From contig NZ_CABVPN010000001.1 of assembly GCF_902499115.1 (NCBI RefSeq), forward strand, positions 261,866-293,865: a stretch of DNA of 32,000 bases. The letters are read 5' to 3'. Shown one piece after another: positions 6,382-20,927 of the stretch. Below the pieces are notes generated by a model. That model had not been told where the DNA came from and searched no databases. It saw only the letters and a list, made by a program, of their open reading frames with translations. Position 1 is the stretch's first letter; each line of letters begins with the position of its first letter. The DNA comes from Burkholderia diffusa. GTDB taxonomy: Bacteria > Pseudomonadota > Gammaproteobacteria > Burkholderiales > Burkholderiaceae. The translations under genes and the position numbers were made by a program.

Positions 6382-6681
<300 letters not shown>

Positions 6682-6738
6682 TTATAGCTTTTCAGCCTTC
6701 CGCACGGTCGTGCTAAATTCCCCGAAATCCATGTTTTT

Positions 6739-6777
6739 GAGTTGCGGCTGAGTTGCACAGGTGTTGCAGATTTTGCA
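6739..6777 (+). repeat. Iterated GAGTTGCA-like octamers (putative integrase arm-type sites), left copy
   Basis: GAGTTGCG-gct-GAGTTGCA-cag-GTGTTGCA-ga-TTTTGCA, preceded by CCATGTTTTTG. The same CCATGTTTTTG and two GAGTTGCA units occur at 20115-20149. Confidence 0.5.
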
Positions 6778-6811
6778 GCGCGCAAAGTCGAGATAGCACG
6801 CCACGCCATGA

Positions 6812-7036
<225 letters not shown>

Positions 7037-7073
7037 TAGTATTTCCCCATATCAAAAAAAGCTACGGGGCTAT

Positions 7074-7982
7074 ATGGCTGGTTTTCGCTATTACAACGTG
7101 CAGTTGCTTCCCATCAACGTGCACGAGCGGGGCGACGTCGGGAAAAAAGGGTATCAAACGTTTTTCGCCGGTCTGAAACAACGCGTCGTCAAGGCGGTAC
7201 AGGATCGCCGAGTTGAGGCAATCGCATACGGCCTTCGGAGCGGCCTACTCTTTTCGGCCTTCACCGTTGAGCCCGCCGACGATTACGCTCGCGGCAAATT
7301 TCTGAAATTCGACGTTGCCGAATCGGTCATAGACATCTACACCAGCCAGACCGTGTTCACGGCTTCCCCTGGCGCGAGCGCTCACCCGACGTACTTCCGG
7401 TTCGCCTTCGACTATGATCGGCACATCTTGGCAATCGAAGACACGCAGGGTCGGCTACCGTCGACTGGACAACTGATCAAGGCTTTATCGCATCTGCTTG
7501 AGCCGGTCCGATCTGACCTCTACCCAGAATACATTCTGACGATTGATCAGCTTACCGCAAGCGACGCCGTACAAAAAGTCTTTAAGGAAGCAAAGGGCTT
7601 CAGACGTGTTCACGTGACGGTCACGTTCGCAAATTCGGACAAATTCGTCCAGAGCTTGCAGAAAGAGCTTCGTGACAAGAATATCCATCAGGTTGAGCAT
7701 ATCGAAAAGGCGAGCAAGGGCAGCCTTATGGATTCACCAACCGAGTTCGGGAAATTCCTCTTGCAAATCGCTCAACGTTATGGGAACGCATCAATAAATT
7801 ACGTCGCGGGCCAAGGGAAAACCCTGAAACGAAAAATCTTTCGCATGAAGGATCACCCTGTTAGGCAAATCCTCAAGGAAGGAAAGAAGGAAACCGAACC
7901 TCAGTTCATCGATCGCGTATTCCAATCAATTCCCGGTGCCGAAAAGAAAGCCAGCGCGCCCGTAAACGACGCTCACGATTGA
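7074..7982 (+). CDS. Hypothetical soluble protein (302 aa), family not recognised
   Basis: ATG at 7074 is in frame with ORF 6753..7982. The upstream extension crosses the ferredoxin relic and a palindrome, so it is discounted. Protein-like composition, MAGFRYYNVQLLPINVHERG.... Stop 7980-7982 lies 8 nt before the next gene. Confidence 0.65.
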   Translation: MAGFRYYNVQLLPINVHERGDVGKKGYQTFFAGLKQRVVKAVQDRRVEAIAYGLRSGLLFSAFTVEPADDYARGKFLKFDVAESVIDIYTSQTVFTASPGASAHPTYFRFAFDYDRHILAIEDTQGRLPSTGQLIKALSHLLEPVRSDLYPEYILTIDQLTASDAVQKVFKEAKGFRRVHVTVTFANSDKFVQSLQKELRDKNIHQVEHIEKASKGSLMDSPTEFGKFLLQIAQRYGNASINYVAGQGKTLKRKIFRMKDHPVRQILKEGKKETEPQFIDRVFQSIPGAEKKASAPVNDAHD

Positions 7983-7990
7983 ACGCAAAA

Positions 7991-8614
7991 ATGTGGGACT
8001 CCATCCATCGATTTCTGTATGCGCTCTTGATCCGGGTTCCGATCTTGGGAGATGTCGTTCTCATCGTGAACGGTTACGCTTATGAGGGTGAGCACGACGC
8101 ACTGGTGAGATTCGCACCGCCAATGCACTGGTTTCGTCGAATTGTTCCGAAGCTCGTGCTATCTGGGCTTTTTGCAATTTGGATCACATGCAAGCTAACG
8201 TCGCACTTCAGCAAGCTCCCAGATCCGGCGACCAAGTTTACCGACATGCTAACTGGCATATTTCCCAATCTGCTTGGCTTCGGAATTGGGGTTTATGCGT
8301 TAATTTTCGCCCTACCCGAGTCTTTCTTTAAGTCTTTGCGAGGGGAGCGAAAAACAACGACGCAGACCGCTGGGCAGCCGAGTTCACCGCAAGCAAATTC
8401 CGAAACGCCTCCAAACATGATTAATGCGGATATGGCGTATCCGCTGGTCATGATAGCACTATCGATCGCTTTCGGTGCTTTCGTACAGTTCTTCATGACC
8501 ATTTTGAGCTTCTATGTCTCAGTGTGGCTGCTTTCATACTGCTTCGTCCTGATGCTTGAGCTGATCAGCCTAATTTACGTTTCCGCCTATAAGTCGATCA
8601 GTGACAAGCAGTGA
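7991..8614 (+). CDS. Hypothetical integral membrane protein (4-5 predicted TM helices)
   Basis: ATG at 7991; the track start at 7979 is TTG. Hydrophobic segments include LVLSGLFAIWITCKL, LLGFGIGVYALIFAL, YPLVMIALSIAFGAFVQFFMTIL and VSVWLLSYCFVLMLELISLIYV. A hydrophilic Q/S/T/P-rich loop separates them. Confidence 0.65.
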   Translation: MWDSIHRFLYALLIRVPILGDVVLIVNGYAYEGEHDALVRFAPPMHWFRRIVPKLVLSGLFAIWITCKLTSHFSKLPDPATKFTDMLTGIFPNLLGFGIGVYALIFALPESFFKSLRGERKTTTQTAGQPSSPQANSETPPNMINADMAYPLVMIALSIAFGAFVQFFMTILSFYVSVWLLSYCFVLMLELISLIYVSAYKSISDKQ

Positions 8615-8817
8615 AAAATGCGGCGAAACCGCGTCGTATGTGAATCCGCCACAAGTCCACGGAAGGTCTGTCAAACCAGCGCCTCGCTGCCTGCGACTGT
8701 CCATGTAATCGACATTTCCCCTACGGTTGGCCCAACGAGCCGCCAAGCGTTTCTCTAGCCGAATCGACACCAGCGCAGCCTCACGCTAAAGCAAAGCGCC
8801 AGAACGCCGTTAAATCG

Positions 8818-9513
8818 ATGCGGCAGCACGGCACGCGTCCTCCTCCGAAATTTCCTCAACATCTCATGATTGACACCGTACTTACACGCAAATTCGGCGA
8901 ACCTTTCCCAATCTTTGACTCGATCGAAGCGGCATCCGACGCAATCATAAAAGCGGCGTTTCGTCTCTACGTTGTGATGAACCCCAATCATTCGGCAGAC
9001 GATTTTCTAACGGAAATCCTCATACCTATAGCGCAGTCATCGCCTGAAAATCCCGCGCAGATCGAGGTTCGCGCATTCCAGAACCACTCGAAGCACTCAT
9101 TCATGATCTACATGCGGGCAATCTGCCATGCCTGCGCATACGTGCAGGCGGCGCGCAACGCTCACGAGGAAGGCCGCGACCGCGAAGGATGGTCCCATAT
9201 CGCCAACGCACACTATCTTCTGGGGTTCGCAGAGGGCGTTTTCGCGCTGGAACCTGCGCTGGTTGGTGTCATCTCGCGCCAAGGCAAGGCGGGCTCGACG
9301 GCGCGTAACGAAAAATATGACGCGTTGCGCCAATTCGCACGTGAGCTTGCTAAAAAGGGGGGCTACCCAAGCAAGCGTAATGCCGCGTTGTCCATCAAGC
9401 CGATGGTTCTAGCCAAAGCGAAAGCCGATGGAAAAGTAAATCTATCAGAAGCGCAGGCGGAACGCACCATTACCAAGTGGCTTGACGGTATGACGTTTGC
9501 CCGCAAACAGTGA
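8818..9513 (+). CDS. Hypothetical protein (start uncertain; alternative ATG at 8866)
   Basis: 231-aa ORF with protein-like composition. No recognisable motif. No convincing RBS at either candidate start. Confidence 0.5.
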   Translation: MRQHGTRPPPKFPQHLMIDTVLTRKFGEPFPIFDSIEAASDAIIKAAFRLYVVMNPNHSADDFLTEILIPIAQSSPENPAQIEVRAFQNHSKHSFMIYMRAICHACAYVQAARNAHEEGRDREGWSHIANAHYLLGFAEGVFALEPALVGVISRQGKAGSTARNEKYDALRQFARELAKKGGYPSKRNAALSIKPMVLAKAKADGKVNLSEAQAERTITKWLDGMTFARKQ

Positions 9514-9637
9514 ACCACTTACAGGCGAACGGTGTACGTGATGTAGAACACGGGATATTTTTTAAAGCCGCTCCGAAATAAAGTTTTCCTTGTCGATTAA
9601 CTGATCGACAATTATCTTAACTTTACAGGAGAATTTC

Positions 9638-10516
9638 ATGAACGCCTCCGCACAAATTTCGCGCATTACAAGTCGACGTAGACATAACCTCAAGGGCAAT
9701 CCCATGATTGCCCGCATCAAGATCGGCAGTCGCGATACACTGAACGTCAAGTGCAAAACGGAAAGTCGATCGCAAACGTCCGAGCCTCCCGAGCAACCAA
9801 CTACCAACAGCAAAAATTACGTCCGCCCCGCCTTTGATAAAGGCACTGTTCTACCGCAGTTTCGCGCCGCCCTTTCTGAAATTTCTGATCTCGGGAAGGA
9901 GATTACTGAAGTCGAGGAGGAATTTCGAACAAACATTCAGGATCGCGCTATTGCAGGGTTAGCGAAGATTCTTGAAGTACGCCGCGCATATTTCGATTCC
10001 GCCACCCCTGAGATCAGCAAAGTACTTCTCGACGATCTATATCAGCAGTGTAAAAACCATGGCCTCAAAGGTCGCACGATTAGAACGACCGAATTTCATC
10101 TTCTCTCGCGCTTGCTACGTAAATCGGATCGGAAACAGGCATCTGCCGACGCGAAAATCTTGATTCGAGCACACAACGAAGGACAATCGTCGGAGACTTT
10201 TCCTGAGTGGGTGAAGAAGCTTAATGGGCTAAACGCGATCAGAAAAGATATCGAATCTCACGAGAAGGGAAATCGCTCTAGTAAAGCTCGGAACGAGCTA
10301 GCTCATATCAAAAGGCAACTTTATGCGAGCGTGAAGAAAGGAACGGGATTTTGGTCTAGCCGCTTAGTCTTTCCATTTGATGGCCCACACGATACTTGGA
10401 CTGAATTGCTTCCGGAAGACAACTCATGGACAACGGTACTCGTCAAGAGAGAAGGGAATCAAGTGAAACTCTATGCTCTGCCGGCAGATGATAGTGATTC
10501 GCCGGCATCAACATAG
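9638..10516 (+). CDS. Hypothetical protein (292 aa)
   Basis: ATG preceded by CAGGAGAATTTC. Charged, helical-looking sequence with no recognisable motif. Confidence 0.6.
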   Translation: MNASAQISRITSRRRHNLKGNPMIARIKIGSRDTLNVKCKTESRSQTSEPPEQPTTNSKNYVRPAFDKGTVLPQFRAALSEISDLGKEITEVEEEFRTNIQDRAIAGLAKILEVRRAYFDSATPEISKVLLDDLYQQCKNHGLKGRTIRTTEFHLLSRLLRKSDRKQASADAKILIRAHNEGQSSETFPEWVKKLNGLNAIRKDIESHEKGNRSSKARNELAHIKRQLYASVKKGTGFWSSRLVFPFDGPHDTWTELLPEDNSWTTVLVKREGNQVKLYALPADDSDSPAST

Positions 10517-10584
10517 CCCACGTCGTGAAATTTTTAGGCTCCCCAGCTGATAATCGTCGGCGCCTTAAACTGAACTCATGCGGT

Positions 10585-10609
10585 GGAATGTCGGCCGGAC
10601 CGACATTCC
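10585..10609. repeat. Island palindrome copy a
   Basis: GGAATGTCGG-CCGGA-CCGACATTCC, with perfect 10-bp arms. Confidence 0.65.
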
Positions 10610-10847
10610 GAGCAACGACGAACATCGTCCACAACCGTGCCGGTGCTCGTTAAACAGAGAGGCGAACCGGGACGCCCGACTGCCCTGCTTTTCTTACGGA
10701 ACCGTTAGATTAGACCTTGGGGAGTAGCAAGCCAAAATCTCGTGCCTGCAAGCGACGCTCGCCGCTCTTGCGCTTGGCTCTGAATACGCTATACTTTTTA
10801 TATCGTTATAAATTTCATACCAGAACAGCCCTAATCCGGCCCACGCC

Positions 10848-11315
10848 ATGCGCGACTACCCACGGCAAGATATGTACGCGATCACCCACTTTCACAATTT
10901 CATGTCCTTGTACCAAGGACGCTTCGCAACCGCCCTTGCGAAAACCCTCAATACATCGGTGTTCGCAGCAAGTGCCCTCGACATCGCGCTGGCGACAGGT
11001 GCTATCTCACTCGACAAGCTGCATCTGCTGCTAGGATGCAGCCGAGGTCAGGCGATCGGCGGCGCTTTCGATCTGCAGGAACAGGGACTCGCCAAGGACA
11101 TCGAATCCACGAAAAGCCAGAGTGGGGAATACTTCCTCGTTCCCATCGATGAGCGATGCGAGGCCGCCCGGCTCTACCGGACAAAGCTGGAAAAATTGAG
11201 CCGACAGCAGGGCTTGTCTGATGCCTTCGACAAAACGCTGCCCGCTTTACAGGCAATCTTCCTGGAAGCGCTGTCCGCAATGGAAAGCAAACATATCAAT
11301 CAAAGCTCATCCTGA
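10848..11315 (+). CDS. Hypothetical protein (155 aa), possibly winged-helix-like
   Basis: ORF in low-GC island DNA. The segment ISLDKLHLLLGCSRGQAIGGAFDLQEQGLAK loosely resembles an HTH. Start uncertain. Confidence 0.45.
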   Translation: MRDYPRQDMYAITHFHNFMSLYQGRFATALAKTLNTSVFAASALDIALATGAISLDKLHLLLGCSRGQAIGGAFDLQEQGLAKDIESTKSQSGEYFLVPIDERCEAARLYRTKLEKLSRQQGLSDAFDKTLPALQAIFLEALSAMESKHINQSSS

Positions 11316-11909
11316 TACGATCCGTTTGTCCCCGTCGGCACCGTCTTTCCGCGTCATGTTGCGACGCTCGGCCGGGCTTGGAAGTACCGACAGCAGTATC
11401 TTGATGGTGTACAGGATGATTAGAGTGCCTGACAGGTCACCGACGAACATGGCAAAGAATCGTTCGCCAATGTTCGTCGTTTGCCCGCGCAACGCCAACC
11501 AGATGTTAGTCAACAGCGGATTCGCAACGGAAAAGGCAAGGGCTAGGACAAGCAATCGCTTCGGCGTGAGATTGGTCAGCGAGGCATGCAGGCCGTAATG
11601 CTCTCTTGCAAGCCGGTATGTCGCATAGGGAGCAACCGTCGCAATGATGCCACCAGCTATCGAGCGGATCGGATCGTTAGGAAAGAAGTACAGGAAGTCC
11701 ACCAGCCAGCTTGCTACAAGCAGGCCGATAGCGCCATCGCTACCGAGCAGCAATGTCGCAAGAAGCCTGACGCCCGACGGCAAGTAGATCCAGTTCACGC
11801 CACGCACGAACTCCGAATGCGTGAACACCTCTTGATTCACCCAGAGCGAAACAACGAAAACCAAGGCTGTGCCGATGACCGATGCGAACCGTAAGCGCCA
11901 GTTGCTCAT
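11307..11909 (-). CDS. Hypothetical integral membrane protein (~5-6 TM)
   Basis: Internal ATG at 11909 (MSNWRLRFASVIGTALVFVVSLWV...) is preferred over 12017, which would overlap the divergent regulator gene. Multiple hydrophobic helices. Confidence 0.55.
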   Translation of the reverse strand: MSNWRLRFASVIGTALVFVVSLWVNQEVFTHSEFVRGVNWIYLPSGVRLLATLLLGSDGAIGLLVASWLVDFLYFFPNDPIRSIAGGIIATVAPYATYRLAREHYGLHASLTNLTPKRLLVLALAFSVANPLLTNIWLALRGQTTNIGERFFAMFVGDLSGTLIILYTIKILLSVLPSPAERRNMTRKDGADGDKRIVSG

Positions 11910-12010
11910 TGAAGTACAATTCCCCGTTCCGATGTACACCGCCGACGCATCGATCTTCGTTTTCCGTACGGCGGTGTTAGCGTTCTGGTCAACGGAGCGT
12001 CGGACTCGAT

Positions 12011-12358
12011 ATGACACGCCCTGCTGATATCTACCTACGCTTTCTGCAACTTACTGAAGCCCTGCGCGGACTACCGTCGCTACCGGCGCTTGACCCACTC
12101 GAAGAAAAGATCCTTGAGTTCGTTGCTCGCATGACGCAAAAAAACGAGCGTCTCTCCGTACGCGACATGATGGCACAGAGTGATCTCGGTTCGCCGGCAA
12201 CACTGCACGCCCGACTCAAGTCGATGCGTGAAAAAGGCTGGCTCACACTTGGCGACACCGACGACTCGCGGCGCAAACAGATCGAACTCACTCCTGCCGC
12301 CCTAAAGCATTTCGATAAACTCGCCGAAGCGTTCGCCAGAGCCGCCAAGGGTACCTGA
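12011..12358 (+). CDS. MarR-like winged-helix transcriptional regulator (115 aa)
   Basis: LSVRDMMAQSDLGSPATLHARLKSMREKGWLTLGDTDDSRRKQIELTPAA has the HTH, wing and helix pattern of MarR-type proteins. Divergent from the membrane gene. Confidence 0.55.
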   Translation: MTRPADIYLRFLQLTEALRGLPSLPALDPLEEKILEFVARMTQKNERLSVRDMMAQSDLGSPATLHARLKSMREKGWLTLGDTDDSRRKQIELTPAALKHFDKLAEAFARAAKGT

Positions 12359-12369
12359 CTTCCCTCTGG

Positions 12370-12390
12370 ATTGTCGGTTAAACCGACAAT
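12370..12390. repeat. Island palindrome copy b
   Basis: ATTGTCGG-TTAAA-CCGACAAT. Part of a ~61-nt repeat (12353-12413) shared with 13567-13629. Confidence 0.7.
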
Positions 12391-12411
12391 TCGATCCGCC
12401 GCTCCGGAAAT

Positions 12412-12591
12412 TTACCGAACGGGCTTCATAGTGCCGTGACCTCCGCAACGCAAGCAACCGTCGTTGCTGCTCCAATTGTGGTTCGTACAGCGATGATCGC
12501 GGCATCCGACAGCGCCGCATTTCATGCAACGGTAGAGCGTCGCAGAGTGTTGACCTGCCTGATTGGGAATGCGACCTGCGCAACTTGCCAT
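12412..12591 (-). CDS. Small Cys-rich (zinc-ribbon-like) protein, 59 aa
   Basis: ATG at 12591 preceded by GGAGA. MASCAGRIPNQAGQHSATLYRCMKCGAVGCRDHRCTNHNWSSNDGCLRCGGHG contains CxxC...C...C...CxxC. Confidence 0.5.
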   Translation of the reverse strand: MASCAGRIPNQAGQHSATLYRCMKCGAVGCRDHRCTNHNWSSNDGCLRCGGHGTMKPVR

Positions 12592-12613
12592 GAGATTTTT
12601 CTCCGTAGGTTTT

Positions 12614-12856
12614 CTATACGTTCGTGACCCTGAATAGGCCTGCTTTGTCCGACGGCGCAAACCGGGCAATGCCGTTGCGCCGATTGAATAGTTGGACTGC
12701 TTTCTCAAAATACTGCTGATCGGTCAGCCGGTGCATGTCCTGTCCGAGCGACCAGCCGTTACCGAGTACGTGCGCCAGTTCCGGCCTGTTGTCATGCCTG
12801 AACGCAAGAGCAAACCGGCGACGTGCTTCTATCTGAGCAAAATTCGGGCGGCTCAT
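12614..12856 (-). CDS. Hypothetical protein, 80 aa
   Basis: Its ATG overlaps the recombinase stop (TGATG on the minus strand), suggesting translational coupling. No motif recognised. Confidence 0.5.
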   Translation of the reverse strand: MSRPNFAQIEARRRFALAFRHDNRPELAHVLGNGWSLGQDMHRLTDQQYFEKAVQLFNRRNGIARFAPSDKAGLFRVTNV

Positions 12857-13422
12857 CACACAAGATCCACGGCCTTGCGCTGCATGTCGTCGTTGACGTC
12901 GATGTATCGCTGCGTTGTCGAGATATCTCGATGTCCAGCAAGCGACATCAACACTCGCACGCCGACGCCCTTGCTTGCCAGATTCGTGATGAACGAGCGT
13001 CGGCCAGAATGGCTGCTTGCGCCTTGAATGCCCGCTTCCTTGTAGAGCCAGTGGAAGTACTGGCAGAGCGTGTTGGCCGTGAATCCGGCCCGCTTCTGCG
13101 TATAGAACAGCGGTTGTTCCGGTCGCGGATTCTTCAGGCTCGCAACATACGCGGCCAGCTCACGCCGCAATTTCTGCCCGAGGAAAACCGTGCGCGCATG
13201 TCGGCCCTTGGTCTGTTCTGGGGCAAGCCGGATTTCTGACTTGATCGAGCCATCCGTATCGAGCACGTCGCCCACGAACAGCGCGGCGACTTCTCCAACA
13301 CGCATGCCCGCCCAATGCGTCAGCAGCACCATCACTCGATTACGCAGCGCGTGACGTCGCAACGAGATATAGGTCAGTACCTGCTTGAGTTCCTTTTCCG
13401 TAAATGTCTTGGCCTGCTTCAT
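12856..13422 (-). CDS. Short tyrosine recombinase, catalytic domain only (188 aa, FimB/FimE-sized)
   Basis: ATG at 13422 after AGGGG. Full catalytic set: AGMRVGE (Arg), TKGRHART (Lys), HSGRRSF (His-x-x-Arg), LAGHRD (His), TTQRYIDV (Tyr). No N-terminal core-binding domain and no room for one before palindrome c. Confidence 0.8.
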   Translation of the reverse strand: MKQAKTFTEKELKQVLTYISLRRHALRNRVMVLLTHWAGMRVGEVAALFVGDVLDTDGSIKSEIRLAPEQTKGRHARTVFLGQKLRRELAAYVASLKNPRPEQPLFYTQKRAGFTANTLCQYFHWLYKEAGIQGASSHSGRRSFITNLASKGVGVRVLMSLAGHRDISTTQRYIDVNDDMQRKAVDLV

Positions 13423-13585
13423 TTCGCCCCTGAACAAATAAAAACCACGCCCAGAGGATGTATTCTTTAGTTATACGTATCAACAAATGAATGACACCGC
13501 GCAGATACCAGAGGAAACAAGCACTTGCGCAACAACCAAAGGTTTTAGCAAAAACCTTTAATTTCGACCTGATGCCGAAATGGAA

Positions 13586-13602
13586 TGTCGGTTAAACCGA
13601 CA
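13586..13602. repeat. Island palindrome copy c
   Basis: TGTCGG-TTAAA-CCGACA, with the same spacer and spacer orientation as copy b. Confidence 0.7.
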
Positions 13603-13904
13603 AGTGCGAGTGCGCTGCTGCGGAAATTTCTTGCTAACAACGCCGTTGAAGTGGAAACGGAAGTAAGGGGGAAGTGAAAAAGTAACAAATGTGATGTCGT
13701 CTGGCTATTTCTTATCGTATGTCCTACTCGACATTTGCTCTTCGCATTGCATCACATGTAGATATCTGTAATTTCTTCGAGCAGTTCTTCATCGGAATCT
13801 ATAACCGTAGTAAATCATTAAAGAGCCTCGCATGCTGAAGCTCTTCGTGTTGAAAGCTGCGAGGACATTTAGTCATCACGCAGCTAGGCGTTTCTGTCGG
13901 AACT

Positions 13905-14408
13905 TTATTCTTCGGGTATGTGGACGTTATCGTAGTCCACGTTGTCGGCGTCGCCTATGCCGACTTCTTTGGTGATGTAGTCGATCCAGCCTTCCGAGGT
14001 CAGAGATTGAATGTCGATCTGAACATTGCCGAAGTCTGTTTTAAGCCATGCGGTACGGATTGCACTGTCGATCAGTGCTTCGTCGGCACCTACGCGGAAA
14101 TTTCCGATCATACAGTGATAGTGCAGTTGCTTATTCGTTGCAAGACCTTCCAGAACAGGGATCACATGAACACTTGCACCGAATCGCTTGGCGGCGTTGC
14201 CGTACACGATGGAGTTCAGGCATTGAATAAATTGTCGGAAATTCTCTTTCGCCTCGATTTCCGTCAGATACCTTTGCATGAGCCCCTTGGGACCCATATA
14301 TTCGCAACGAGACTTCATCGTAAGCGTGACCGCATGAGTGAAATTAGATGCATGCTTACACATCCAATCCTGCGTCTCTTGCCTTAGTTTTTCGTTTTTG
14401 TTTGTCAT
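13905..14408 (-). CDS. HUH-motif Rep-like (rolling-circle initiator / inovirus Gp2-like) protein, 167 aa
   Basis: Three motifs in canonical order and spacing: FTHAVTLTM (motif 1, FxTLT-like), QLHYHCMIG (HUH), WIDYITKE (YxxK). Confidence 0.45.
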   Translation of the reverse strand: MTNKNEKLRQETQDWMCKHASNFTHAVTLTMKSRCEYMGPKGLMQRYLTEIEAKENFRQFIQCLNSIVYGNAAKRFGASVHVIPVLEGLATNKQLHYHCMIGNFRVGADEALIDSAIRTAWLKTDFGNVQIDIQSLTSEGWIDYITKEVGIGDADNVDYDNVHIPEE

Positions 14409-14521
14409 AGCCGTATTTATTTCAGCCAGGACAAAACAGCCTATATAACGTCGAAATTATGTTGATTTCACCAGTGGCCGAATACATCCTCCTCTGTATC
14501 GAAACGACATATGAGGCATAC

Positions 14522-14968
14522 ATGAGCGTAATTGCAAATCTGAAGATCGTCGCCGCTAAGCGTCCCGGCGCACTGCCGCAGATCGTACAGCGTCGTAACC
14601 GGCTGATCGCTCAAATCTGGGAACAGACGGAACTGGCGAAGGCTCAACAGGCCGGAACGTCGTTTACACCGACGAAGTTTCGCTCAGTTAAGGATGCCGA
14701 AACCGGCGAACGGCGTAACGTGGAAGTGCAGAAGCGCATTCGTGCTTGGTGGTGGACCGCAGAGAACGGCCGCGTCCACATGTTCGTCAAGTACGGTGCT
14801 AAGACGCTGGAACTTGCCAAGGGCAAGACGGCCATCGAGATCGGTGTTCTGGAAGACCTGATTCCGACGCTCGACACACTCAAGGCGGCAGTTACCGCCG
14901 GCGAACTCGATGCTCAGATCGAGGCTGCCAGTGGCCAGATGCGCTCAGGGTTTGTTAGCAAGAAGTGA
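14522..14968 (+). CDS. Conserved island-type hypothetical protein (148 aa)
   Basis: ATG at 14522 after GAGG. MSVIANLKIVAAKRPGALPQIVQRRNRL...RIRAWWWTAENGRVHMFVKYGAKTLELAKGK recalls, from memory only, proteins common on proteobacterial islands and ICEs. Confidence 0.6.
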   Translation: MSVIANLKIVAAKRPGALPQIVQRRNRLIAQIWEQTELAKAQQAGTSFTPTKFRSVKDAETGERRNVEVQKRIRAWWWTAENGRVHMFVKYGAKTLELAKGKTAIEIGVLEDLIPTLDTLKAAVTAGELDAQIEAASGQMRSGFVSKK

Positions 14969-14975
14969 AGTGCCT

Positions 14976-15000
14976 GGCAGGTCCGAACTTCGGACCTGCC
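14976..15000. terminator. Bidirectional hairpin between convergent genes
   Basis: GGCAGGTCCG-AACTT-CGGACCTGCC between the stops at 14968 (+) and 15010 (-). Confidence 0.5.
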
Positions 15001-15009
15001 ATTAATCAC

Positions 15010-15786
15010 TTATCGGTCTGTCGCAGGCTCTTGATACATTTTAAATCCCTCGACATGCTTGAGATCGAGCCGCCTGAATCGCATCAATCCCCCTTGAGAT
15101 GTTGGCCAAACACCTTTTATATCTGGCGAAACATGCACGGCATTTACACCGCCGCTGAGTTTTGTCGCATCCCACACACATGAACCGATGGCTTTAGGTT
15201 GATAGTTGCCGGGCACGCCTACTAAGGTGATCATCGCTTTACTCATCGCCAGTCCAACCCCAAGGGAAATTTCTGGCAGATTGTAGCGTTCCGCGATTGC
15301 GTCATTAATCAGCGTCCTCATACCACCGATACAGTCTTTCGCGGCACGGTATGCGAGCCGAACAGAACTTTCCCTATCGTCCTTGTCTACACTGAACAAT
15401 ACCAATCCGCCATCACCTAAATATTCTGTAACCATGCCATCTTTGAAGCCGCAGGTAACGGCGACAGCTGGGAGAAGTGCTGACGTTTCGTAGTAAACCC
15501 GTTGTAGCCCATTGACTTTCGCATTTTTTATATGCGTCTTGAGTCGTTGGGTGGATCCACGCATGTCAATTACCAGCGCGATAAACTCATCGACTTGCGG
15601 ATGATCTGCCGACACAACCCGATAACCCGGGATGTTTGAGTCGGCGCTGTCGGCAGCGTATGACTCCATTGACTTTTGTAGCCGTGCCTCTACCAACAAA
15701 TGCCCGACTTTTCTCCAATTGGACTCGGCACGATCGAGGCCTTGCTCGATCGCGGCACGCACCTTCGCAGTCTCATTATTGTTCAT
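15010..15786 (-). CDS. pycC: Class III nucleotidyl cyclase, Pycsar PycC-like
   Basis: Start ATG 15786 overlaps the upstream gene's stop (ATGA). Cyclase metal-binding motifs LVIDMRGSTQR and EYLGDGGLVLF. About 258 aa, single domain, paired with a cNMP-binding effector. Confidence 0.75.
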   Translation of the reverse strand: MNNNETAKVRAAIEQGLDRAESNWRKVGHLLVEARLQKSMESYAADSADSNIPGYRVVSADHPQVDEFIALVIDMRGSTQRLKTHIKNAKVNGLQRVYYETSALLPAVAVTCGFKDGMVTEYLGDGGLVLFSVDKDDRESSVRLAYRAAKDCIGGMRTLINDAIAERYNLPEISLGVGLAMSKAMITLVGVPGNYQPKAIGSCVWDATKLSGGVNAVHVSPDIKGVWPTSQGGLMRFRRLDLKHVEGFKMYQEPATDR

Positions 15787-16691
15787 CGATTTACTTTCGC
15801 GATGTGCGCGCGAACCTTCTTCCATGCTGCTGCCATATCGCGGTTCGGGGCATCATCGGATAGCTTTGCTGGATAGTCGATGGTTGTTACGCCAGCAAGA
15901 TCGCTCGGCAGCTTTATAGCTACGCCCTTCGGCTTCATCAAAATGGTTCGGCGGCGGCCAAGCCGTCCCATGAATAACCCAAGCTCGAATATGACGTTGT
16001 CTCGTGGGCTCGGGCTCCTCCCCTTGCGAGATGTTGTCAGATCATCATCTTGTGCGATTGCAATAGCAAAATCGGCCGTTTCAAGATGCTGTTCGAGGTC
16101 TTCGAGTGGATAACTGCTCACTCCAAAAACGTTGTCAGGCCAGTTCCAGAATCTGATATTTTCCTCATGCTCAAATGCAAGGACACCTGTTTCGGCGACC
16201 GGCAGAGCTTCAACTGAGGAAATCGCAAATACGTTTACCTTTTGATCTGCGCGGGCAAGTGCCTTGTTGCGTCGTTCCAAGCGACGCGCTAGCTCAGTAG
16301 CAATATGCTTGTATATCCGAGGAAATTGATCAGCCAACTCTATAAACTGAGACTCTGAGAGTTTGGCCGCCACAACAGTGCCATCGGCGACTACAGTTGC
16401 GGATCGCGGTAACGCTTCGATTGCGGCCATTTCACCCACGTGTCTACCCGCATCAACGCGATCAACCTCTTTCTTACCTACGACGATCTTCGTGCCACCG
16501 GTCAATAACAAGTAAACGTCGCTTGACTGATCACCCTGCACGATCAGCCTCTCGCCATCACGAAACTCGACAAGCTCACAGGTATCGGCCAGCCGCTCCG
16601 GCAAGCCGGGAATGTCCCGGCAAACTCCCTGCATTCCAAGCGCCTCAATGAGATTTTGACGACGCGCCTCTCCCTCGAACCTTTCTTTCAT
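15783..16691 (-). CDS. pycTIR: cNMP-binding domain fused to a TIR-like (CAP12/PycTIR-type) effector domain
   Basis: N-terminal cyclic-nucleotide-binding fold with phosphate-binding cassette GEMAAIEALPRSATVVA. C-terminal half has FAIAIAQDDDL...RDNVIFELGLFMGRLGRRRTILM...LPSDLAGV, typical of bacterial TIR-like NADase effectors. ATG at 16691; GTG at 16697 is also possible. Confidence 0.75.
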   Translation of the reverse strand: MKERFEGEARRQNLIEALGMQGVCRDIPGLPERLADTCELVEFRDGERLIVQGDQSSDVYLLLTGGTKIVVGKKEVDRVDAGRHVGEMAAIEALPRSATVVADGTVVAAKLSESQFIELADQFPRIYKHIATELARRLERRNKALARADQKVNVFAISSVEALPVAETGVLAFEHEENIRFWNWPDNVFGVSSYPLEDLEQHLETADFAIAIAQDDDLTTSRKGRSPSPRDNVIFELGLFMGRLGRRRTILMKPKGVAIKLPSDLAGVTTIDYPAKLSDDAPNRDMAAAWKKVRAHIAKVNR

Positions 16692-16826
16692 TATCACCCC
16701 GTTGCGTATAGCGAAATTTTCGTTCTTCGGCTAGCCAATGTACAACTGCAACTACGCTTCGTTAATTTGCAAGTATCGCGCATGGTGGATCACTCACGAT
16801 CGCCTCCCATATAAATACTCGCGCCA

Positions 16827-17030
16827 ATGACGGAGACAATGTCCATGCGATACCACGAAATCCTAGCTCGATCCGGTCTGTATGAAGTTGCAGACCTTGA
16901 ACAACAGCGCATCAAAGCGCAGCAGCAGGCTGCCAAGCGACAGACCGCCACCGCCAAGCGTGCGGACCTGACACACCGAATAGATAAGCTGAGGAAACAG
17001 CTTTCCGACCTCAACGCCAAGCCGATTTGA
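16827..17030 (+). CDS. Small coiled-coil protein (61-67 aa)
   Basis: ORF divergent from pycTIR. The best RBS (GGAGA) fits the third ATG at 16845. Q/K/A-rich heptad-like sequence. Its last codons lie inside a repeat shared with 18976-19020. Confidence 0.4.
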   Translation: MTETMSMRYHEILARSGLYEVADLEQQRIKAQQQAAKRQTATAKRADLTHRIDKLRKQLSDLNAKPI

Positions 17031-17042
17031 TCAGCCCTTGGT

Positions 17043-17065
17043 AAATGTCGGTCGACCCGACATTT
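17043..17065. repeat. Island palindrome copy d
   Basis: AAATGTCGG-TCGAC-CCGACATTT between convergent genes. Could also act as a bidirectional terminator. Confidence 0.65.
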
Positions 17066-17104
17066 GCAGTGAGCAAGAGCCGAGACTAAAGCCGAGGCAC
17101 TCGC

Positions 17105-17941
17105 TCACACTCCATTTCTCGCCGACTTGATGTCGAGGAGGTTGATTTGATCGATCTTGTCCTTGTGAATGACGATGGTCAATTTTGCCGGATACTTAAA
17201 TCGCATCTCGCTGATTCTGAATGTCCACAGCATTATTTTCAGCAAATCTTCATCGCCAATGTTCTTGTGACCTTTGATTCGCGTAATTCCCGACCCAAAG
17301 ACAGTGGTCGAAACGCTCTTTTGAGCGTACACATTGTTCACTTTATCCCAAAAATTTATCAAAAACTCCAGGTACTCCGGCATCGTCAGCAATGCCCTGT
17401 TGTTTTCATCGAACTTAGAGAATGCAGTAAGAAGATAATCCTTATAAAGACAAACTGTCCCGATTTGATATCGCCTCTTTTTACCCAGCTTTCTGGCCTC
17501 GTTACTTCCCACCACCTCACTGAGATCGAAAGCATAATTATCTATATAGTGATCCAATTCTGAGACAGGCGTACCGAGATGCTTCTGAATGAAGATACCG
17601 TTGAGGGACTTTTCGCCAATTATTTTATTGTCTACTAAAGTATCGAAGTACTCATTGAAAGCAATTGCTTTCAATCCCGATTCCTGAAATATATCGCCAA
17701 CCTTGACAGTGACATTACTTCCCTCTACGTCTATGTCGATGCTATTCAGATTGTTCGACCAAACCCACAGCGCCACGTAAATTACGGCTAACAACGCGAG
17801 GAAGATCCAACCACCGCGCAATTTCCAGTTAGCAGGAATATCAACAAATAGCACGACCACTGATAATGCACTGCCGATTACGGACGTGCTTCCAAGGAAT
17901 TTTTTGACAATTCGCTTATCAAAGAAACTTACCTTTGCCAT
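17105..17941 (-). CDS. thsA: Thoeris type II ThsA-like effector: 2 TM helices plus Macro-like domain
   Basis: N-terminal hydrophobic helices (LGSTSVIGSALSVVVLFVDI; GGWIFLALLAVIYVALWVW). These are followed by VKVGDIFQESGLKAIAFNEYFDTLVDNKIIGEKSLNGIF, which matches my recollection of the ThsA Macro family. Lies directly downstream of a TIR gene. Confidence 0.65.
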   Translation of the reverse strand: MAKVSFFDKRIVKKFLGSTSVIGSALSVVVLFVDIPANWKLRGGWIFLALLAVIYVALWVWSNNLNSIDIDVEGSNVTVKVGDIFQESGLKAIAFNEYFDTLVDNKIIGEKSLNGIFIQKHLGTPVSELDHYIDNYAFDLSEVVGSNEARKLGKKRRYQIGTVCLYKDYLLTAFSKFDENNRALLTMPEYLEFLINFWDKVNNVYAQKSVSTTVFGSGITRIKGHKNIGDEDLLKIMLWTFRISEMRFKYPAKLTIVIHKDKIDQINLLDIKSARNGV

Positions 17942-17971
17942 AGAGTTCGAAACTCGCTCGGGTGTTATTTT

Positions 17972-18535
17972 TTATGGCGTGTATCGATAGACATCGGGGT
18001 TCGCCTTACTCCCGACGACGAAGCCACTATTCAAAAGCGCACTTTTAATAACGCTTTTTTGCATAGGAACATGAAGTGTAGGCACGTTCTTCATTGAGTC
18101 GCGAAAAATAGGAAGATTGTTCCAGAGATTTTTCACCGTTTGCTTCAACGCCCCGTTCACCAGAAGGCTCTCCTTCGAGTCGTACTCGGGATATATAACG
18201 ATGACCGGCAGCCCTTGATCATTGATGCCATAGTCGATCTCTTCCCTGAGTGCCAAGGAATTTTTTGTGGCCGAGCTCAAAATTAGGACGATATTCTTCG
18301 AACTCCGAAGACGCTCCCTGAGTCGCGGCTTCAAGGTCAACTCCCAATTGCTACCGTCTCGGACGCTGTAGGTCTTGTCGTGCGCGTCATTAAAGGGAAA
18401 CGACGCGTCGGCCCCTTTCCACGTCCGAAGAAGGTTGTAGAAGCAGAAATCTTTCGTCGCATGAGCACCTAATGAACTAGGATTGAATGGCTCAGAGACA
18501 TAGAAGGCAGTGTAGTTTCCGTTTCGATACGCCAT
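17972..18535 (-). CDS. thsB: Thoeris ThsB-like TIR-domain protein
   Basis: 187 aa. MAYRNGNYTAFYVSEPF...YNLLRTWKGADASFPFNDAHDKTY...NIVLILSSATKNSLALREEIDYG is the bacterial TIR-like (DUF1863/ThsB) pattern. RBS GGGGAG. Confidence 0.7.
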   Translation of the reverse strand: MAYRNGNYTAFYVSEPFNPSSLGAHATKDFCFYNLLRTWKGADASFPFNDAHDKTYSVRDGSNWELTLKPRLRERLRSSKNIVLILSSATKNSLALREEIDYGINDQGLPVIVIYPEYDSKESLLVNGALKQTVKNLWNNLPIFRDSMKNVPTLHVPMQKSVIKSALLNSGFVVGSKANPDVYRYTP

Positions 18536-19000
18536 AACAACTCCCCTATGTGTAGGGAAAACGAGTGCATTCGAACTTCGATATGCATCACTTCTTGCAG
18601 TGATGCGAATTTATGACAGCTGCCCCGAGACAGCTGCAAATAACAACTGCGTCGGCGACCGAATACGCTCGGACTTGCTTGCAAATGAGCTGTCGGCATC
18701 GCAACGTTGAGGCCGCTTCGGAGCCTTTCGGCGATGTCTTGCTACTCTCGATCCGAGTGCTAACCGAAAACGGTCACTTGACTTGCAAGATTGTTTGCGG
18801 CCGAATGCGCTACCACATCGTACTTTTTGCCACCCCACACCGTCGCCGGTAAACACTACCGTAAACCTTTCATCAGATAAAGATCTGAACACAAAATACG
18901 CCGGAAAAACGCTTCCGTCACGCAAGATGTCGTACTCCGCAAGCCATGCACAACTCGGTGTCCGTTCCCGAATCGCAAGCCGATCTGACCAGCTTTCGGT

Positions 19001-19025
19001 AAATTGTCGGTCGAACCGACGTTTT
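19001..19025. repeat. Island palindrome copy e (imperfect outer arms)
   Basis: AAATTGTCGG-TCGAA-CCGACGTTTT. Part of a ~45-nt repeat (18976-19020) matching 17018-17061. Confidence 0.6.
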
Positions 19026-19031
19026 GGAAGA

Positions 19032-19069
19032 ACGAAGCCCTGTTCGCACGTAATCGAACAGGGCTTCGT
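19032..19069 (-). terminator. Strong hairpin downstream of the integrase gene
   Basis: ACGAAGCCCTGTTCG-CACGTAAT-CGAACAGGGCTTCGT, a 15-bp stem about 60 nt after the integrase stop. Confidence 0.45.
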
Positions 19070-19130
19070 CGTCAGAGAATTGCATTTTTCGAGGTTTCTC
19101 TTGTGTACGGTATACACAAGTTATCAGGAC

Positions 19131-20117
19131 TTATCCGAGCTTCTTCGCCAGTTCGCTCGCCGACGTGTGGTAGTACCGACTCAGCATCTGAACGTTCGAA
19201 TGTCCGGTCACGGATGCAAGCTCGATCACGTTCGGCAGCTTTTTAGCAAGACTCGTCGTTGCCATATGCCGTAGATCGTGAAAGTGAAAGTTTTCGATTC
19301 CGGCACGCTTGCACGCTCGCGGCCACGCACACAAGACAACGTTCTGGCTGATCGGAATAACGCGCTCGTCGATGCGCTCCAACCCCTCCAGAATCGCAAT
19401 CGCGGCACTGCTCAATGGAACATACCGATCCCTACCGTTTTTCGTCATCGGCAGATAGGCCGTGCGCTGATCGAAATCGACGTGCCTCCATTCCAGAGAC
19501 AGCAATTCGCCCTGCCGCATCGCTGTCTCCAGCGCAAGCTTCGCGAGCGGGAGCAGCCACCTGCTCCGTAATTCATGGCGCTCCGCATGCAGTTCATGCA
19601 GGAGGCGATCAAGCTCGGCAGGCTTCAATATGCGATTCCGCCCAGGCGGCAATCGGGGCTTTTTCACAAGCTTCGTCGGATTGCTTACTGAGAGTCCCCA
19701 TTCACGTTGCGCATGCGTGATCACGGCGCTGATCGTCGCGAGTTCGCGACAGACGCACGAGTTGGTAGCCACCTTGAGACGTTGATCGCGGTAATCGGCC
19801 AACAGACTGGCCGTCAGATTGCGCATGCTGTACTCGGCGATCTTGTGGCGCAGCATTTTGCCGATCCGATATTCTTCGCTGCGCCTGCTACGCTTGGTCG
19901 GCGTGATCGATTCCTTGTAACGCTCCAGCAGTTTGCCGAAGGTTATGTCGGTCGTACCTGCCGGATCGACCCACGTTCCGTCGTCCATCGCGGCTTCGAC
20001 GGAACGTGCCCAGGCTTGCCCTTCTGCCTTCGTTGCAAATGATTTGTACTGCGTAGGAAATCCCTTGCGATTAATTTTGACTTGCCAGCGTCCGTTGCGC
20101 TGACTGAATGTAGCCAT
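19131..20117 (-). CDS. int: Tyrosine-type site-specific integrase (328 aa)
   Basis: N-terminal MATFSQRNGRWQVKINRKG arm/core-binding region. Catalytic ETAMRQGELLSLEW (Arg), HFHDLRHMATT (HxxR), VTGHSNVQMLSRYYH (His, Tyr). Its start lies ~108 bp from attR. Confidence 0.9.
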   Translation of the reverse strand: MATFSQRNGRWQVKINRKGFPTQYKSFATKAEGQAWARSVEAAMDDGTWVDPAGTTDITFGKLLERYKESITPTKRSRRSEEYRIGKMLRHKIAEYSMRNLTASLLADYRDQRLKVATNSCVCRELATISAVITHAQREWGLSVSNPTKLVKKPRLPPGRNRILKPAELDRLLHELHAERHELRSRWLLPLAKLALETAMRQGELLSLEWRHVDFDQRTAYLPMTKNGRDRYVPLSSAAIAILEGLERIDERVIPISQNVVLCAWPRACKRAGIENFHFHDLRHMATTSLAKKLPNVIELASVTGHSNVQMLSRYYHTSASELAKKLG

Positions 20118-20130
20118 GTTTTTGCCTCTG

Positions 20131-20149
20131 AGTTGCAGTTGAGTTGCAA
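20131..20149 (+). repeat. GAGTTGCA x2 (putative integrase arm-type sites), right copy
   Basis: GAGTTGCA-gtt-GAGTTGCA, 14 nt upstream of the integrase start codon. Confidence 0.5.
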
Positions 20150-20223
20150 AAACATGATTTCGGACAATTGGAAAAGCTGGAAAGCCTCAGCCCACGGTCA
20201 AGTCAATGATATGACCCCAATTT

Positions 20224-20259
20224 TCAATTGATGCACTCGTCGGTAATCATCAAAGACAT
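20224..20259 (-). pseudogene. Displaced native 5' stub of the ferredoxin gene
   Basis: The minus strand reads ATG TCT TTG ATG ATT ACC GAC GAG TGC ATC AAT TGA ([11 protein letters not shown]). High-GC backbone sequence begins immediately upstream of it. Confidence 0.75.
20225..20252. repeat. attR core (28-bp direct repeat)
   Basis: CAATTGATGCACTCGTCGGTAATCATCA, identical to 6614-6641. Confidence 0.85.
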
Positions 20260-20318
20260 ACTGATCTCACTTCTTCAGGCCGGCGGCCGGCTTCGCAACG
20301 AAACCGGCCGGCGCCGCG

Positions 20319-20927
<609 letters not shown>

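Follow-up and report, generated by a model that had tools for sequence, protein, structure and literature searches.

A mobile DUF4747 and membrane-protein gene pair in a Burkholderia diffusa genomic island is a predicted RexAB-type phage-exclusion operon

The Rex-like systems described to date number only five (PMC12894663). Proteins with a DUF4747 region and a partner with four transmembrane segments have been tied to phage defence through lambda RexAB, Sbash gp30/31 and CarolAnn gp44/43 (PMC6426596, PMC6426606, PMC7542560, PMC13373217). Three Hatfull/Pope papers detected the DUF4747 motif by HHpred in lambda RexA, Sbash gp30, CarolAnn gp44 and Butters gp30; all four have a membrane protein with four passes as their partner, and experiments have established every one of these pairs as a prophage defence. 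Here, we describe two adjacent genes, called A and B below, in a stretch of 32,000 nucleotides (nt) of Burkholderia diffusa DNA (contig NZ_CABVPN010000001.1, positions 261,866 to 293,865; hereafter, the window). We consider it likely, by analogy with the characterised pairs, that the two genes are a self-contained, mobile phage-exclusion operon of the RexAB type ("DUF4747/CarolAnn-like"), in which A senses and B damages the membrane.

The division of labour between the two partners differs among the described systems. In lambda, Sbash, CarolAnn and the Pseudomonas putida system RexABpp, the membrane protein is the effector and the RexA-like protein the trigger, and the outcome is a permeabilised membrane and arrested growth, while in Butters the DUF4747-like gp30 is the main antagonist, which the four-pass gp31 modulates or sequesters (PMC12894663). 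Overproduction of RexA of P. putida RexABpp, reported in 2026, leads to RexB-dependent growth arrest and membrane permeabilisation (PMC12894663). According to the paper on the RexA structure, RexA, gp30, gp44 and Toast gp42 form dimers and bind DNA without specificity, and RdgC is a structural homologue of RexA. Lambda RexA also biases the CI/Cro switch and can act on DNA independently of RexB. A 2026 paper in EMBO J lists a "DUF4747/CarolAnn prophage system" among immune operons under CapK/CapS regulation. What RexA senses and how RexB opens have been open questions for about 70 years.

Genes A and B and their products

The coordinates of A, B and the other features discussed are collected in Table 1. 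The best homologues were found with E-values of 1e-195 for A and 1e-123 for B, and both genes are therefore real. The ATG assigned to A must be its true start, since the N-terminus M-x-x-F-[KR]-Y-Y-N-[VIM]-Q is kept across the family; M1 itself is kept in at least 90% of 86 homologues. NCBI lists a protein of 322 amino acids (aa), a length that fits a start at an in-frame TTG further upstream (7014).

The protein encoded by A has no hydrophobic segment (maximum Kyte-Doolittle value 1.2 in a 19-residue window) and is net basic, with 44 lysines and arginines to 35 aspartates and glutamates. Residues 75-265 match the Pfam family DUF4747 (PF15931) with 57.6 bits against a cut-off of 27 (E = 1.7e-15), and 84 of the 86 relatives match the same family. 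A also matches phrog_10040 (E = 4e-35), whereas PADLOC gave no match to it and NCBIfam only a far-sub-threshold one to FtsY. A profile search of 1.84 billion representative proteins retrieved 123 clusters at E <= 1e-3, 75 of them at E <= 1e-30. The named hosts are Burkholderia, Paraburkholderia, Ferribacterium, Marinobacter, Aeromonas, Serratia, Halomonas, Buttiauxella, Photobacterium, Allochromatium and Proteus, and a protein 100% identical to A is recorded under Burkholderia multivorans.

We modelled A with AlphaFold2 using 21 homologues (predicted local distance difference test, pLDDT, 88; predicted template modelling score 0.86) and compared the model with 350,542 PDB chains by Foldseek. 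The best match was lambda RexA (8TWQ; E = 8.5e-6, probability 1.0), followed by E. coli RdgC (2OWL; E = 2.4e-4), and no other PDB match to A reached E <= 1e-3. In a viral structure library, uncharacterised phage proteins ranked first (1e-14 to 1e-10) and RdgC proteins of phages next. The model contains a helix-flanked N-terminal sheet of about seven strands, which makes up a split globular domain, an inserted beta-alpha-beta-alpha-beta-alpha-beta unit at about residues 150-245, and a long C-terminal helix (275-292) that returns to the first domain. This order of elements agrees with the published description of the RexA crystal structure. As modelled, A is soluble, and its two-domain fold resembles that of RexA and RdgC. 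Four of its residues, Y27, H117, N187 and G237, are invariant in the 86 homologues, which diverge to about 15% identity; no function has been described for the equivalent site of RexA.

The product of B shows five hydrophobic stretches in a hydropathy plot. Its AlphaFold2 model (pLDDT 76) consists of four long helices (52-72, 79-107, 142-165 and 171-206), preceded by a hydrophobic N-terminal helical hairpin (2-30) and interrupted by a disordered polar loop (118-139). By the positive-inside rule, basic residues at the C-terminus, in the central loop and ahead of helix 52-72 make it probable that this loop and the two ends of the four-helix core face the cytoplasm. The motif L95-GFG-x-GVYALIF106 shows no variation in 52 homologues of B, and neither do N145 and L152, which lie inside an N-A-D-M-A-Y-P-L stretch; I99 and P92 are present in at least 90%. 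Nowhere in the module is conservation higher than at these membrane-helix positions of B, and this extreme conservation argues mildly for B as the active part. B matches phrog_27113 (E = 8.5e-28); it has no match in Pfam, PADLOC or NCBIfam and no relative in the PDB, and phmmer and hmmsearch comparisons of A and B with PDB sequences returned only noise.

The first-pass annotation, made from the sequence alone, had described the pair as a soluble protein next to a membrane protein with four to five transmembrane segments, 8 nt apart, and both descriptions agree with the data above and with the coordinates (7982 and 7991). Its statement that neither product could be named stands for B, which is in no Pfam family, and falls for A, which scores more than twice the DUF4747 cut-off. 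Foldseek, which it had proposed for both proteins, led to RexA and RdgC for A and, for B, to a non-significant viral match from Sbash.

The two genes behave as a unit. When related loci were searched with local hidden Markov models of the two families, B was found directly after A in all 13 genomic loci with downstream sequence and in 20 of 20 viral contigs. The junction is 8 nt long here, and the full set of junctions compared measures 8, 8, ~14, 2, 0, -4 and 3 nt, which is consistent with co-transcription and translational coupling. In a strain-specific locus of Salmonella Welikade, a hypothetical gene of 606 bp likewise comes after a DUF4747 gene of 894 bp. Nucleotide similarity to the copy in Paraburkholderia fungorum is limited to positions 7035-8610 of the window, and that copy lies at a quite different site, just downstream of gyrB; thus, the mobile unit comprises A, B and about 40 nt of leader. 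In Photobacterium sp. JCM 19050 (L040, 9938-11522), the homologues of A and B are both split by frameshifts; the copy may be decaying, or the assembly may be in error.

The pair is a horizontally mobile accessory unit found in prophages and in integrative or defence islands. In the window, it lies in a low-GC island with att-like repeats and an integrase; elsewhere, it occurs in other islands and in the 20 viral contigs. A profile search of genome contigs with a 21-sequence alignment of A yielded seven loci. The Ferribacterium locus carries NERD, UvrD helicase and TIR_2 genes; the Marinobacter locus, two GmrSD genes, a type I HsdR, MobA and an integrase; the Serratia locus, a RadC, AlpA and DUF3987-type integrative element; a second Burkholderia family locus, prim-pol, integrase, HNH and HTH-M78 genes; and the P. 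fungorum locus, NurA/DUF87/methyltransferase, SymE and an SLFN-type helicase. Open reading frames (ORFs) next to the pair in six further genomes matched AbiEii, HEC-03B, HEC-06, PLD-helicase, NsnB and GmrSD_N, and also phage portal, capsid and NinG proteins; ordinary housekeeping genes were among the neighbours too. In ten viral contigs, the neighbours were holins, endolysins, spanins, repressors, DNA methyltransferases and tail-fibre genes, i.e., typical moron positions. This survey is descriptive, listing loci without an enrichment statistic against background. Searches of 50,697 isolated phage genomes by tblastn found no match to A or B, and the only match among plasmid records was to a Proteus record of chromosome size.

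Comparison with Rex-like systems and alternative readings

A-B combines a RexA-fold component, a membrane protein of about four helices encoded immediately downstream and a mobile accessory context. The likeness to lambda RexA/RexB (PF15969/PF15968) extends to the layout, in which a gene for a cytoplasmic protein of ~280-300 aa precedes one for a small multi-pass membrane protein, to the split globular domain with an inserted alpha/beta domain that A shares with its best PDB match, and to the status of both pairs as accessory genes of temperate phages or islands. Unlike lambda RexAB, A-B is not located beside a cI repressor gene, and lambda RexB has 144 aa as compared to 207 aa of B, which carries an additional N-terminal hairpin and a long disordered central loop.

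CarolAnn gp44/gp43 and Sbash gp30/gp31 resemble A-B in that a cytoplasmic partner linked to DUF4747 is combined with a four-helix membrane partner, and for these pairs anti-phage activity of the kind proposed here has been shown experimentally. Sbash genes 30 and 31 lie just after the lysis cassette and have their own promoter; prophage copies of A-B are likewise found near lysis genes. At ~370 aa, gp44 and gp30 stay below the Pfam DUF4747 threshold in hmmscan, whereas A reaches it, and their hosts are Actinobacteria, whereas the A-B family occurs in Beta- and Gammaproteobacteria. By its description, RexABpp of P. putida prophage P1 (PP_5643/PP_5644) is a further proteobacterial pair of a RexA-fold DNA binder and an effector with four transmembrane segments; PP_5644 has both termini on one side of the membrane. 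B shares with RexB, Sbash gp31 and PP_5644 the arrangement of four membrane helices around a central polar loop.

Viral structures gave suggestive matches as well. The top match of B in the viral library was a 165-aa Sbash protein (E = 0.25, probability 0.82, not significant), which is probably gp31, the RexB-like partner of gp30, since gp31 is the sole 165-aa coding sequence in the first 50 kb of the Sbash genome. The fourth-ranked match of B came from Siphoviridae sp. ctylc9, the metagenomic phage that also gives the best viral match of A. We take this agreement as suggestive rather than as proof.

If the analogy holds, A would probably be a dimeric, non-specific DNA binder that, as the sensor, detects a phage protein or a phage DNA-protein intermediate. 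B would be the inner-membrane effector, which oligomerises or opens once A triggers it; the membrane would then depolarise or leak, ATP would fall, growth would stop and the infection would be aborted. Transcription probably starts at a promoter of the pair's own, just upstream, and translation of B is probably coupled to that of A, given that the two genes are 8 nt apart here and, in relatives, anywhere between overlapping by 4 nt and lying ~14 nt apart. DNA binding, dimerisation, activation of B by A, membrane damage and an anti-phage phenotype are thus what the characterised relatives would predict for this pair. The proposal of the first-pass annotation that a cytoplasmic protein paired with a membrane protein forms an abortive-infection or defence module gains from the fold, the strict pairing and the genomic contexts; as to the function itself, the analogy suggests it. 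The kind of system is known, and A-B would be a further predicted example from Burkholderia.

Several observations weigh against assigning A-B to the RexAB type. Neither A nor B matches any of the RexA and RexB models of Pfam and PADLOC, no relative of A matches the Pfam RexA family, and PADLOC 2.0 reports nothing for either protein; in the positive check, lambda RexA hit its own Pfam and PADLOC models at 1e-97 and 9e-110, and lambda RexB hit its own at 8.5e-92 and 8.6e-61. The global template modelling scores of A are low, 0.25-0.34 (0.25 for RexA), as would be expected of whole-chain superposition if two hinged domains differ in angle. The match of B to Sbash gp31 is non-significant, and membrane helix bundles match easily. 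B has the extra N-terminal hairpin that RexB lacks, and its central loop is variable and disordered, whereas that of Sbash gp31 is functionally critical. Finally, the logic of the pair could be reversed, as in Butters, with A as the effector and B as a sequestering partner.

Direct profile comparisons were negative as well. BLASTP of A against lambda RexA found no match, and neither did profile searches against the single sequences of RexA, gp44, gp43 and RexB, with hhalign probabilities below 1% for RexA and RexB. We then built alignments of four RexA and four RexB sequences (from lambda, Klebsiella, Hafnia and Salmonella phages), of gp30 with gp44 and of gp31 with gp43; hhalign and hmmsearch results against all of them were non-significant. 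For the thin two-sequence alignments, hhalign gave P = 0.013 and a probability of 3% for A against gp30 with gp44, and nothing for B against gp31 with gp43. Since the control comparison of the lambda RexA alignment with gp30 and gp44 was equally blank, such thin-profile tests have no power, and their negative outcome is uninformative on homology. A search of viral contigs with RexA retrieved only near-identical lambda copies and therefore yielded no diverse RexA profile.

Two alternatives deserve to be weighed in full, and both seem to us unlikely. The first takes Butters as the model: A would be the antiviral or toxic effector, blocking, for example, phage or host DNA transactions, and B would tether and silence it until infection. 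Such roles are precedented by Butters gp30 and gp31 and by the RexB-independent action of lambda RexA on DNA, and the invariant polar residues Y27, H117 and N187 of A (86 sequences) could mark an active or ligand site. Yet four of the five characterised Rex-like systems use the membrane protein as their effector, and the LGFGxGVYALIF motif of B (52 sequences) suits a pore, a gate or an oligomerisation surface better than a passive anchor. The second alternative, to which we give about the same small weight, is independent assembly: the Y27-H117-N187 site of A would bind a ligand or catalyse a reaction, and B, unrelated to RexB, would form a new pore or gate with its LGFGxGVYALIF helix. In that case, the combination of a RexA-fold sensor with a membrane protein would have arisen more than once, and a different trigger and effector chemistry would be possible.

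We regard it as improbable that A-B serves selfish maintenance or the control of lysogeny, either as an addiction pair in which A holds a toxic B in check or as a RexA-like modulator of a repressor switch. The bias that lambda RexA imposes on the CI/Cro switch, the fact that A-B always travels on mobile elements and the growth suppression by RexB-type proteins when triggered would fit such a role. It is at odds with the absence of an adjacent CI/Cro-type switch in the island and in P. fungorum, where the copy lies downstream of gyrB, with prophage positions that vary as those of morons do (lysis cassette, tail fibres, repressor) and with the repeated occurrence of A-B near restriction, TIR, Abi and similar genes. 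A housekeeping role unrelated to phages, with A as an RdgC-like recombination modulator served by a membrane protein, is very improbable even though E. coli RdgC is the second-best PDB match, with a fold common to RexA, and phage RdgC proteins are among the viral library matches: RdgC is a stand-alone protein with no membrane partner and does not appear in the listed Pfam matches of A and its relatives (84 of 86 match DUF4747), whereas the A family is rare and patchy (the 123 clusters mentioned above), strain-specific, carried on low-GC islands or prophages and always coupled to B.

Should A-B indeed be of the RexAB type, the family would be a convenient model for the step from sensor to membrane, as it is compact, with a well-predicted RexA-fold model of A and an invariant helix in B, and occurs in the tractable hosts Serratia, Aeromonas, Proteus and Burkholderia. 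The B family is not yet catalogued in Pfam. Since PADLOC 2.0 does not flag A-B, pairs of DUF4747 and B are probably under-counted in surveys of defence islands.

Leader region of the module

The leader of A contains a candidate σ70-type promoter (Table 1). The module of P. fungorum keeps both hexamers and their 17-nt spacing, with TAGTAT invariant and the other hexamer conserved as TTGC(A/G)G, and the sequence further upstream is unrelated. The candidate is weak with respect to the consensus (7 of 12 positions), and a scan for consensus promoters reported no site. From sequence comparison, the conserved block, located where similarity between the two modules sets in, is probably the module's own promoter. 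No convincing plus-strand terminator follows B.

The 8-bp stem that the first-pass annotation had noticed in this leader is present as described: CCCCGTAG (7032-7039) pairs with CTACGGGG (7062-7069), and the loop measures 20 nt when an additional G-U pair is counted. We find it unlikely that this hairpin sequesters the ribosome-binding site and controls translation of A, as had been suggested. Such control would fit a G+C-rich stem whose right arm places GGGG 5-8 nt ahead of the ATG, which is identical in three other Burkholderia copies and which, as estimated from island shuffles, would be expected in ~3% of cases in a given 60-nt stretch; the Marinobacter homologue also has a long stem folded over its ribosome-binding site. 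The left arm in P. fungorum is, however, CAACGTAG, so that five of the eight pairs are kept and three are lost with no compensating change, and no equivalent stem exists in Ferribacterium, Serratia or the second Burkholderia family. The fold of the 81-nt leader is unexceptional (z = -1.39; 19 of 200 shuffles fold as well), the island is rich in inverted repeats overall, and the conserved bases of the left arm coincide with the -10-like TAGTAT, 17 nt after TTGC(A/G)G. With TAGTAT as the -10 element, transcription would probably start inside the loop, and the transcript would not include the left arm. A search of Rfam gave nothing credible around the leader. We therefore consider the stem probably incidental or lineage-specific.

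The island and its other modules

GC content drops from ~67%, the genome value, to ~51% across roughly 6.7-20.9 kb of the window. The island, ~13.6 kb in length, is flanked by a 38-nt direct repeat (6614-6651 and 20225-20262, 89% identical) that resembles att sites and corresponds to the 5' end of a ferredoxin gene. The repeat boundaries, the integrase and the drop in GC confirm that A-B is the first module inside the left end, as had been annotated. The same annotation had counted two defence systems in the island, and PADLOC recovers both, one as ThsA with ThsB (Thoeris), the other as a Pycsar-like pair of a PycTIR-type effector and a PycC-like cyclase, which may be a divergent one. If A-B is counted, the island holds at least three defence modules rather than two.

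Table 1. Features of the island and its borders (positions in the window)
Feature	Position	Strand	Remarks
Ferredoxin gene	6382-6648	-	5' end forms the 38-nt repeat
Candidate σ70-type promoter	7014-7042	+	-35 TTGCAG 7014-7019, 17-nt spacer, -10 TAGTAT 7037-7042
Inverted repeat	7032-7069	+	8 Watson-Crick pairs and one G-U pair
Gene A	7074-7982	+	ATG 7074, TGA 7980-7982, 302 aa; proposed sensor
Gene B	7991-8614	+	ATG 7991, TGA 8612-8614, 207 aa; proposed effector
ORF, 231 aa	8818-9513	+	Directly downstream of A-B; no Pfam, PADLOC, NCBIfam or PHROGs match
ORF, 292 aa	9638-10516	+	Downstream of A-B; no Pfam, PADLOC, NCBIfam or PHROGs match
MASE1-domain membrane protein	11307-12017	-	Mid-island
Truncated second tyrosine integrase, 193 aa	12856-13437	-	Phage_integrase E = 5e-27
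PycC-like cyclase	15010-15825	-	Weak PADLOC match, best 2e-9; adjoins PycTIR gene
PycTIR-type effector	15783-16697	-	PADLOC E = 2e-104
ThsA	17105-17941		PADLOC model E = 2e-125
ThsB	17972-18535		PADLOC model E = 1e-76
Tyrosine integrase/recombinase	19131-20117	-	Right end of island

The two ORFs that follow B were considered as further parts of the system and rejected, since they accompany A-B in only one Burkholderia island lineage and are absent beside it in P. fungorum, Ferribacterium, Marinobacter and Serratia. They could represent a further separate module. The truncated integrase and the MASE1 gene in the middle of the island suggest a composite origin from two or more integrated elements. 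At 6832-6908, immediately within the left end, lies a ~77-nt fragment of ferredoxin coding sequence in inverted orientation. Other Burkholderia genomes (L010-L012) share the insertion site and the first genes.

A repeat of ~45 nt with the core CTGA..(8-12 nt)..AAT(T/G)TCGG-N4-5-CCGACA(T/A)T is present in six copies (6934-6947, 10590-10604, 12373-12387, 13587-13601, 17047-17061 and 19006-19020); seven sites are counted when a probable chance site at 20706 is included, the chance expectation being 0.4. The copies sit between gene modules of the island: those at 17047 and 19006 flank Thoeris, those at 12373 and 13587 the integrase fragment, and those at 6934 and 10590 the block that begins with A-B. 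In the sequence stretches compared from related Burkholderia islands, the first copy alone is kept. These repeats may be recombination or cassette-boundary sites, operator palindromes or repetitive extragenic palindrome (REP)-like hairpins. Inverted repeats are in general excess across the island (6650-20260), which contains 50 perfect 8-bp stem seeds with loops of 3-30 nt as compared to 7.7 +/- 3.7 in dinucleotide-preserving shuffles.

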